Under the pieces are notes generated by a model. That model did no database searches, was not told the origin of the DNA, and saw only the letters and a list, made by a program, of their open reading frames with translations. From a virus: a stretch of 64,000 bases of DNA. Made by a program: the position numbers and the translations under genes. Below, piece by piece: positions 50,782-51,342 of this stretch. The stretch lies in IMG/VR virus record IMGVR_UViG_3300045988_056971; one strand, given 5' to 3'. Positions within the stretch are counted from its first letter, which is position 1. Each line of letters starts with the position of its first letter.

Positions 50782-51342
50782 ATGAAAAAGACAATTGAAA
50801 TTGAATGTCCAGATGGTTATAAACCCATCTATAATGCCGAAACTGGCAATGTTGAAATCGTTCCAGAAAACATTATGGGACGGATAAGAACCTATGAGGA
50901 TGCTGTAAACTATCTAGGGTGTGTTACTAGAGATACTATTTACTACAATAGATCTGTAAATTCTCTAGCTAAGTTGCAGACAGTCTTGGATGCGCTAAAT
51001 GAAGGCCACAAGTTCAATCTGTTAACTGGTACTATATGGTATCCCTGGGTTCGCTTCTTTAGAATGAAATCAGTTCCGAAGGATGCAGAAGTCATTGGTC
51101 ACTTCCGTTATCAGGGCGAGAAATTCGCGCTGGTGGGCGGCGGCGCGGATTATGGCGGCAATGCGGGTCTCTGCTTTTTCGATTCTTACGGTGACGTCGG
51201 CGATGCCGATTCCCATGTCGGGATGCTTGCGTGCAAATCTGAAGAGATTGCCAAATACGTATCAACCCAGTTTGGAAAGCTAGTGTTCGATGCTTGTTTT
51301 GCAAGACATTTCAAGGGTGAAGAATTTGAATGGCTTGACTAA
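50782..51342 (+). CDS. second DGR target protein (186 aa) carrying variable repeat VR2 in a C-type-lectin-like segment
   Basis: Intact ORF. The segment …ALVGGGADYGGNAGLCFFDSYGDVGDADSHVGM… parallels the VR1-encoded LLVGGRAITGGTAGLGYFFSSFDVGHASSLVGF. Confidence 0.65.
   Translation: MKKTIEIECPDGYKPIYNAETGNVEIVPENIMGRIRTYEDAVNYLGCVTRDTIYYNRSVNSLAKLQTVLDALNEGHKFNLLTGTIWYPWVRFFRMKSVPKDAEVIGHFRYQGEKFALVGGGADYGGNAGLCFFDSYGDVGDADSHVGMLACKSEEIAKYVSTQFGKLVFDACFARHFKGEEFEWLD
51127..51207 (+). repeat. DGR variable repeat 2 (VR2), remote, opposite strand to TR/VR1
   Basis: About 81 nt aligns to the TR (in minus-strand sense). All of its roughly 20 differences fall at TR adenines. It causes the local GC spike that spawns spurious ORFs 51083-51283 and 51092-51304. 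Confidence 0.8.

Follow-up and report, generated by a model that had tools for sequence, protein, structure and literature searches.

A phage diversity-generating retroelement with a probable second target, a small-protein gene 26 kb away on the opposite strand

We analysed a 64,000-nucleotide stretch of phage DNA (IMG/VR record IMGVR_UViG_3300045988_056971; the whole stretch is called the window below) that carries a diversity-generating retroelement (DGR). The element comprises a template repeat (TR), a reverse transcriptase (RT) gene and two variable repeats, VR1 and VR2. VR1 lies next to TR in a tail-fibre gene, and VR2 lies 26.2 kb away on the other strand, inside a gene for a 186-aa protein (50782 to 51342, plus strand). 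Our results indicated that one DGR very probably serves both genes. A first-pass annotation of the window had proposed VR2 as a second, non-adjacent, opposite-strand target of the same TR and RT, and comparison with related phages bore this out: in about 33 orthologs, VR2 varies only at TR adenines.

To compare TR, VR1 and VR2, we used a three-way ungapped alignment. TR (24765 to 24672, minus strand) is 94 nt long, contains 30 adenines and is non-coding; it is located between the VR1 gene and the RT gene. VR1 (24966 to 24873, minus strand) encodes the C-terminus of a tail-fibre-like protein, and VR2 (51129 to 51222, plus strand) encodes residues 116 to 147 of the 186-aa protein. VR2 showed 20 mismatches to TR, every one at a TR adenine (15 A>G, 4 A>T and 1 A>C), so that 20 of the 30 adenines were substituted; the hypergeometric probability that all 20 fall on the 30 adenine sites is 2e-13. 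VR1 showed 23 mismatches to TR, again all at adenines. The other 64 positions were identical across TR, VR1 and VR2 (64/64), and the two VRs differed mutually only at TR-adenine sites. The alignment demonstrated the TR-VR relation, with its restriction to adenines, for both VRs. VR1 and VR2 agreed at only 12 of the 30 adenine sites, indicating that their substitutions are largely independent. The first-pass annotation was therefore right that VR2 departs from TR exclusively at adenines and by substitutions distinct from those of VR1, and the peptides it quoted for the two VRs were correct. It had placed the repeat at 51127-51207; the match itself is real, but the true span, 51129-51222, is longer.

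A repeat search of the window returned VR1 and VR2 as an inverted repeat (24873-24966 and 51129-51222; 94 nt, 81% complementary). When the window was scanned with a degenerate TR pattern, in which each A was replaced by N and up to three mismatches were allowed, exactly three places were found, namely TR, VR1 and VR2, against zero expected. The homology ends abruptly at the repeat ends, and the flanks of the three copies are unrelated beyond them; in most relatives, the homology to TR begins at TR position 3 (51131). Both VRs use the same reading frame of TR, in which 11 codons are randomised (ten AAY and one TAT), none of which can become a stop codon. The GC content is 62.8% in VR1 and VR2, compared with 45.7% in TR, 39.4% in the rest of the VR2 gene and 34.9% in the window, which confirmed the GC spike reported earlier at VR2. 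Two antisense open reading frames (ORFs) had been described across this spike: the one at 51092-51304 is indeed on the minus strand, but the one at 51083-51283 uses another frame of the plus strand.

We then examined related phages. An IMG/VR scan with the degenerate TR pattern yielded 31 loci from related phages, whose flanks were of three kinds only, those of TR, VR1 and VR2. An identical TR with all its adenines was present in 23 loci of related IMG/VR contigs. The TR copies of three related contigs, L005 (1211-1304), L012 (145-238) and L016 (minus strand, offset 9851), carried VR-like non-A bases over part of their length; these could be assembly chimeras of TR and VR, or they could reflect real VR-to-TR transfer. 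A search with the 186-aa protein identified 39 orthologous loci in IMG/VR, and 24 of these contigs also contained a TR-family match. In about 33 orthologs, from related phage genomes of 180-190 kb, VR2 equals the window TR at every non-A site of TR positions 3-94, and almost every genome has its own string at the 30 adenine sites. Non-A differences in VR2 were found in L044, L053, L056, L067 and L070. The last two were considered as a test in an independent lineage and rejected, because the 3' half of the VR of L070 still matches this TR. The L070 gene (3001-3537) looks recombinant: its C-terminal third resembles a subgroup of about 212 aa (see below), and only the 3' half of its VR matches TR.

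The contrast between VR2 and its surroundings was clear in genes that are otherwise identical. For 24 of the 25 top gene pairs, which are identical at 464 of 464 positions outside the VR, identity within the 94-nt VR was only 77-87%, with 12-22 nucleotide differences located at adenine sites. The pairs formed by the window with L042 and with L035 are among those that are identical outside VR2 and divergent within it. At the protein level, entropy computed over the 120 best protein hits reached 3.0-3.5 bits, with 12-15 residue types, at residues 121, 123, 124, 127, 134, 136, 137, 141, 143 and 145, and 2.1 bits at residue 132. These residues correspond exactly to the AAY and TAT codons of TR. 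Nearly all other residues remained below 1 bit, with residues 178 (1.45 bits) and 180 (1.90 bits) as exceptions. The VR2 protein formed 830 clusters at 90% identity, and the window's own cluster alone held 3514 distinct sequences. We collected 15 distinct VR1 sequences and 33 distinct VR2 sequences from the relatives; the frequencies of A/C/G/T at the AAY sites were 0.39/0.13/0.27/0.21 in VR1 and 0.34/0.10/0.30/0.25 in VR2, that is, the same spectrum. In one full-length relative, contig 060496, the two VRs likewise lie on opposite strands at a distance of about 26 kb, so this layout is conserved in at least that genome. From these comparisons, we conclude that VR2 is most likely still targeted by this TR and RT and that it is diversifying in natural populations.

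The remainder of the cassette fits a DGR. The RT gene (23254 to 24546, minus strand) encodes 430 aa when TAG is read as sense, and it has in-frame TAG at codons 133, 164, 298 and 410. Its product matched Pfam RVT_1 (E 9e-20) and contains GNYLSQ (GxxxSQ) at residue 189 and YADD (YxDD) at residue 220. The closest solved relative was 8ub7_A (E 4.6e-45), with retron and group II intron RTs far behind. We take entry 8ub7 to be the Bordetella reverse transcriptase bRT; a text search for it gave no paper. By tblastn, the RT shared 52-58% identity with its counterparts in crAss-like phages and 34% with the RT region of Bordetella phage BMP-1. By its motifs and relatives, it is predicted to be an RT of the DGR type. 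On the same minus strand, 126 nt separate TR from the RT start codon (24546) downstream of it, and VR1 lies 107 nt upstream of TR. The VR1 target gene (24846 to 26663, minus strand) encodes 605 aa with TAG as sense, including six in-frame TAG codons, and its product matched phrog_5302, 'tail protein' (E 1.8e-84).

The VR2 target belongs to a different family. The 186-aa protein matched a single family, the unannotated phrog_11581; a weak match to the 'tail' family phrog_5302 covers the VR only. No signal peptide, no fibre-like or immunoglobulin (Ig)-like domain, and no Pfam, NCBIfam or PADLOC match was detected in it. Similarity between the VR2 protein and the tail-fibre target is confined to 40 residues around the VR, and the scaffolds are otherwise unrelated. 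The motif common to both proteins, VGGxAxxGxxAGLxxFxSxxxVGxAxxxVG, also occurs in distant members of the VR2-protein family. This family comprises 223 representatives at 50% identity, almost all of 160-220 aa, and more than 4000 clusters at 90% identity. It falls into at least three subgroups; besides that of the VR2 protein, there is one of about 212 aa on contigs of 50-165 kb and one of about 198 aa on contigs of 165-190 kb, both of which are hypervariable at the same codons as the VR2 protein, suggesting that they are also DGR targets. For the 212-aa subgroup, this suggestion rests on protein hypervariability only, because no TR was found: two degenerate-pattern scans of IMG/VR for its cognate TR returned only the three VRs that had supplied the pattern, and the subgroup loci examined contained no TR-like copy. 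The 198-aa subgroup was absent from IMG/VR. On a 78.7-kb phage contig (L076, 1328-4187), four paralogs stand in tandem, one of them interrupted, each with a different VR-like segment.

The N-terminal 80 or so residues of the VR2 protein form a module that is also present in Gp100 of phiCrAss001, a hypothetical protein encoded in the tRNA-containing region of that phage, and in the upstream 154-aa ORF of the window (50207 to 50671, plus strand). The latter has the N-terminal module only (hhalign 94.7%, residues 7-94), followed by a different C-terminus with no VR. Cultured crAss-like phages likewise have only the N-terminal module of the family. INPHARED contained no nucleotide relative, and tblastn against it with the 186-aa protein gave no match.

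The two target genes also differ in their use of TAG. The minus-strand genes (1-42 kb), which include those for terminase, portal and tail proteins, are recoded: minus-strand ORFs (1-42300) contain 20.4 in-frame TAG codons per 1000 codons and end in TAA or TGA only. The 18 plus-strand ORFs examined (43158-63298) contain zero TAG, neither in frame nor as a stop. The VR2 gene has no in-frame TAG and ends in a TAA that overlaps the next ATG, in agreement with its earlier description as a standard-code gene. The genetic code is thus split by strand, with a suppressor tRNA gene at the strand switch (42227 to 42299, minus strand; anticodon CTA; called tRNA-Pyl by ARAGORN). This tRNA(CTA) is predicted to be needed for translation of the RT and the VR1 protein and not of the VR2 protein. 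ARAGORN found 21 tRNAs in the window, and the 20 besides tRNA(CTA) are all in the plus-strand block. The cumulative GC skew has its minimum at about 40000-43000, at this divergent strand switch, between VR1 and VR2.

Several observations weigh against the conclusion that VR2 is a present-day target of an ordinary DGR. The evidence for its activity comes from comparisons between assemblies. No ORF lies between VR1, TR and RT or right after RT, and the cassette, to which this search was confined, therefore has no accessory gene of the Avd or HRDC type. The first-pass annotation had proposed a search for an initiation of mutagenic homing (IMH)-like motif at the 3' end of VR2. Only a short 3' match is present, GTCGGG in place of the GTCGAG of TR, and an extended IMH was not found next to VR2 or VR1: 3' of the last variable codon, the only shared stretch is TGTCGGG in both VRs (TGTCGAG in TR), and the VR 3' ends have no longer GC-rich element. 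The G/A difference in this short match is fixed in 48 of 48 distinct VR sequences. A hairpin or cruciform at the VRs was rejected as well, since the flanks folded no better than shuffled sequences (DNA folding z-scores of -0.4 for VR1 and -0.9 for VR2) and the 5-bp stem 3' of VR2 is broken in about one third of the orthologs without compensation.

The protein fold and the substitution pattern add to these points. A C-type lectin is the usual fold of DGR targets, and the first-pass annotation had raised a C-type-lectin/FGE fold for the 186-aa protein. The protein matched no C-type-lectin structure, and this fold was not supported. Of two AlphaFold models, the second was confident; Foldseek against BFVD returned only uncharacterised relatives, and the profile of the protein found nothing among PDB sequences. 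The protein may have a permuted or strongly derived lectin fold. In addition, the adenines are not all treated alike. Randomisation affects the TR adenines that precede A, T or C, whereas all eight that precede G (TR positions 4, 7, 11, 29, 37, 44, 71 and 93; window positions 24762, 24759, 24755, 24737, 24729, 24722, 24695 and 24673 on the minus strand) appear nearly always as G in VR1 and VR2 alike; TR position 37, for example, is G in 14 of 15 VR1 and 32 of 33 VR2 sequences. Three of the eight are synonymous third codon positions (CTA>CTG, GTA>GTG and GCA>GCG), and protein selection therefore cannot explain these fixed-G sites. Simple random mutagenesis of adenines leaves the pattern unexplained; context-dependent misincorporation by the RT and selection at the DNA level are possible causes.

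Some of these observations would also suit a fossil VR2 that was rewritten formerly, with only VR1 still being diversified. The lack of a hairpin and of an extended IMH adjoining VR2, the near-constant G at its first two adenine sites and the non-A differences in the five loci named above all point that way. We nevertheless consider a fossil very unlikely: a fossil would also gather non-A changes at the background rate, but gene pairs with 464/464 identical flanks differ at 12-22 adenine sites, VR2 is unique in nearly every genome with thousands of distinct variants in one cluster, and its substitution spectrum is that of VR1. It is extremely improbable that the similarity arose through a common protein domain, or through gene conversion from one target gene to the other, with no templating by TR. 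Both proteins and distant family members do have the same VR motif; however, VR2 equals a non-coding TR at 64 of 64 non-A positions of the DNA and departs from it only at adenines, the mutual differences of VR1 and VR2 are limited to the same sites, the homology breaks off sharply where the repeat ends, and the scaffolds have nothing else in common. An assembly artefact, in which VR1 or TR reads were mis-joined into an unrelated gene, has next to no chance of being correct either. The chimeric-looking TR copies of L005, L012 and L016 indicate that assemblers can confuse these repeats, but 39 IMG/VR contigs, together with hundreds of independent JGI, ENA and Logan assemblies, contain the same gene with the same in-frame VR, and in a family of more than 4000 clusters the VR motif is conserved as an integral component.

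What the diversified protein does is a separate question. VR2 could be a true DGR target in a virion-associated or released adhesin, acting in receptor binding or decoration. Most known targets of phage DGRs are receptor-binding proteins, the tail fibre has the same VR segment, the weak phrog_5302 'tail' match covers the VR only, and gene position alone is no proof of timing. We regard an adhesin as unlikely, yet credible. The VR2 gene is surrounded by tRNAs and small genes, does not share the strand of the structural block but lies on the other one, and avoids TAG, which all structural genes use; the protein lacks a signal peptide and fibre-like or Ig-like domains; its N-terminal module is shared with phiCrAss001 Gp100; and its paralogs occur in tandem arrays in other phages. 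The first-pass annotation placed the gene in the early region and suggested a non-structural (or differently timed) protein; both 'early' and 'non-structural' are inferred from gene position only. Our own tentative guess is that the VR2 protein is a non-virion binder of a variable ligand or host factor, probably acting inside the cell in phage-host conflict. This guess is based on the gene position, TAG avoidance, the lack of export signals, the tandem paralogs and a neighbourhood that includes a gene for a tRNA-ligase phosphodiesterase (CPD)-domain protein. With little confidence, one could go further and see in the 186-aa protein a previously unrecognised class of DGR target, with a scaffold that is maybe neither C-type lectin nor Ig, perhaps maintained by crAss-like phages within their code-neutral, tRNA-rich block and hypermutated in trans so as to keep pace with a variable host factor inside the cell, for example a defence protein, as a kind of 'antibody-like' counter-defence.

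If one DGR does serve both genes, the following course of events may be envisaged. TR would be transcribed with or next to the RT gene, and the RT would copy it into cDNA with misincorporation opposite adenines. The cDNA would then replace VR1, or VR2 26.2 kb away on the other strand, and homology to TR together with the short 3' GTCGGG would suffice for target recognition. Because the RT gene has four in-frame TAGs, the RT would be made only when the phage tRNA(CTA) is active. RT synthesis, and hence mutagenesis, would probably occur late in infection and act on progeny genomes. The VR2 gene would be readable under either code, and a new allele would be expressed in the next infection. If replication starts at the GC-skew minimum, both VRs would have the same orientation relative to the fork, which would make the opposite-strand target mechanistically equivalent.

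A distal, opposite-strand, non-structural second target is a concept that has already been described (Quimbyvirus, 2021; for non-adjacent targets, Wu 2018). The Quimbyvirus DGR of a gut Bacteroidetes phage has one TR and RT and two targets, one VR in the structural module and a second, distal one on the opposite strand beside counter-defence-type genes including a tRNA ligase; its authors interpreted the second target as a hypervariable protein that is non-structural (Benler et al. 2021, PMC8008677). The window resembles it in having a distal opposite-strand target, with a tRNA-ligase CPD-domain protein encoded 5 kb from VR2. However, the Quimbyvirus lineage has genomes of about 75 kb, its RT is encoded through frameshifts and both its targets are reported as C-type-lectin proteins, whereas here the phage is amber-recoded, the RT would need suppression and the second target has no lectin match. 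Wu et al. (2018, PMC5758913) found many phage DGRs with one adjacent and one non-adjacent target, the latter nearly always less than 50 kb from the RT, and the 26-kb distance fits that pattern. Their cases came from GenBank prophages and genomes; the crAss-like lineage and the VR2 target family were not described there. In the tentaclin systems, one gut-phage DGR hypermutates two functionally different genes, both reported to encode C-type-lectin proteins and proposed to act in receptor binding (Baykov et al. 2023, PMC10743442); the second target here is, in contrast, a small protein without a recognisable lectin or Ig domain.

The Bordetella BPP-1 DGR (Mtd/TR/Avd/bRT) and the present one share the adenine-specific transfer from TR to VR, the AAY codons in TR, the position of TR shortly before the RT and the use of a tail fibre as target, and the RT is homologous to that of Bordetella phages. 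The BPP-1 element serves a single target, encodes an Avd protein, and has a GC-rich IMH as well as a hairpin downstream of its VR; the GC-rich IMH and the downstream hairpin were not found here, nor was an Avd in the cassette.

In its features, the phage resembles the amber-recoded Zeta crAss-like phages (proposed Echekviridae), namely in genome size, tRNA block, suppressor tRNA and a structural block that is recoded. Metagenomic contigs of its relatives are up to 183-192 kb long, and the sources point to the human gut. By identity, the nearest annotated relatives of its TerL were crAss-like phages, at 25-28%; unannotated human faecal contigs reached 43-45%. As described in the retrieved passages of PMC12386605 (2025), Zeta crAss-like phages such as ctoVY1 and cthgQ11 have genomes of 177-189 kb with a tRNA block, tRNA(CTA) and amber suppression. 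Their DGRs, in the same passages, have amber-interrupted RT genes with GxxxSQ in the order tail fibre-VR-TR-RT, usually with no Avd. The window fits this description of the DGR-bearing phages (about 155-190 kb in Table 1 of that paper). Those passages mention a cassette-adjacent tail-fibre target, with extra TR-VR pairs in Lera and ct1yV3, and no distant small-protein target; more broadly, the passages retrieved on Zeta and Epsilon crAss-like DGRs mention cassette-adjacent fibre targets only. Yutin et al. 2021 did not discuss DGRs.

The VR2 target family appears to be unreported and is possibly unusual. Phage DGRs are usually discussed as a means of receptor switching through tail fibres; here, the same mutagenic machinery would also be spent on a small protein outside the structural block, in abundant large gut phages. 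Public metagenomes already hold thousands of natural variants of this protein. A large metagenome survey was based on short contigs and states that it does not detect targets away from the RT (Roux et al. 2021, PMC8144416). Distal small-protein targets may be under-counted, because surveys miss targets that are not adjacent to the RT and the retrieved Zeta passages list the tail fibre only. An RT made only under amber suppression, together with a second target readable in either code, predicts when mutagenesis occurs and when the new alleles are used. If cognate TRs exist for the other two subgroups, hypermutated small proteins would be general in these phages.

The neighbourhood of VR2 contains several other genes of note. 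Directly 3' of the VR2 gene is a run of membrane-associated genes (51342-54847, plus strand), encoding a 159-aa protein with a signal peptide and transmembrane segments, a 76-aa lipoprotein-like ORF, a 172-aa membrane protein and a 657-aa SPFH/Band 7 protein with long Ala/Glu/Lys-rich repeats. PADLOC gave no defence or anti-defence match for the VR2 gene and its neighbours, apart from a generic AAA similarity of a distant ORF. The CPD domain (E 5.5e-8) is in a 138-aa protein (56425-56841, plus strand). A 284-aa protein (46938-47792, plus strand) contains CxxxCxxC and showed sub-threshold similarity to radical SAM proteins (23.1 bits, against a cutoff of 29.5 bits). Both of these proteins are encoded inside the tRNA block, where ARAGORN also called an unusual tRNA-like gene whose anticodon has only two bases, gc (44585-44652, plus strand).

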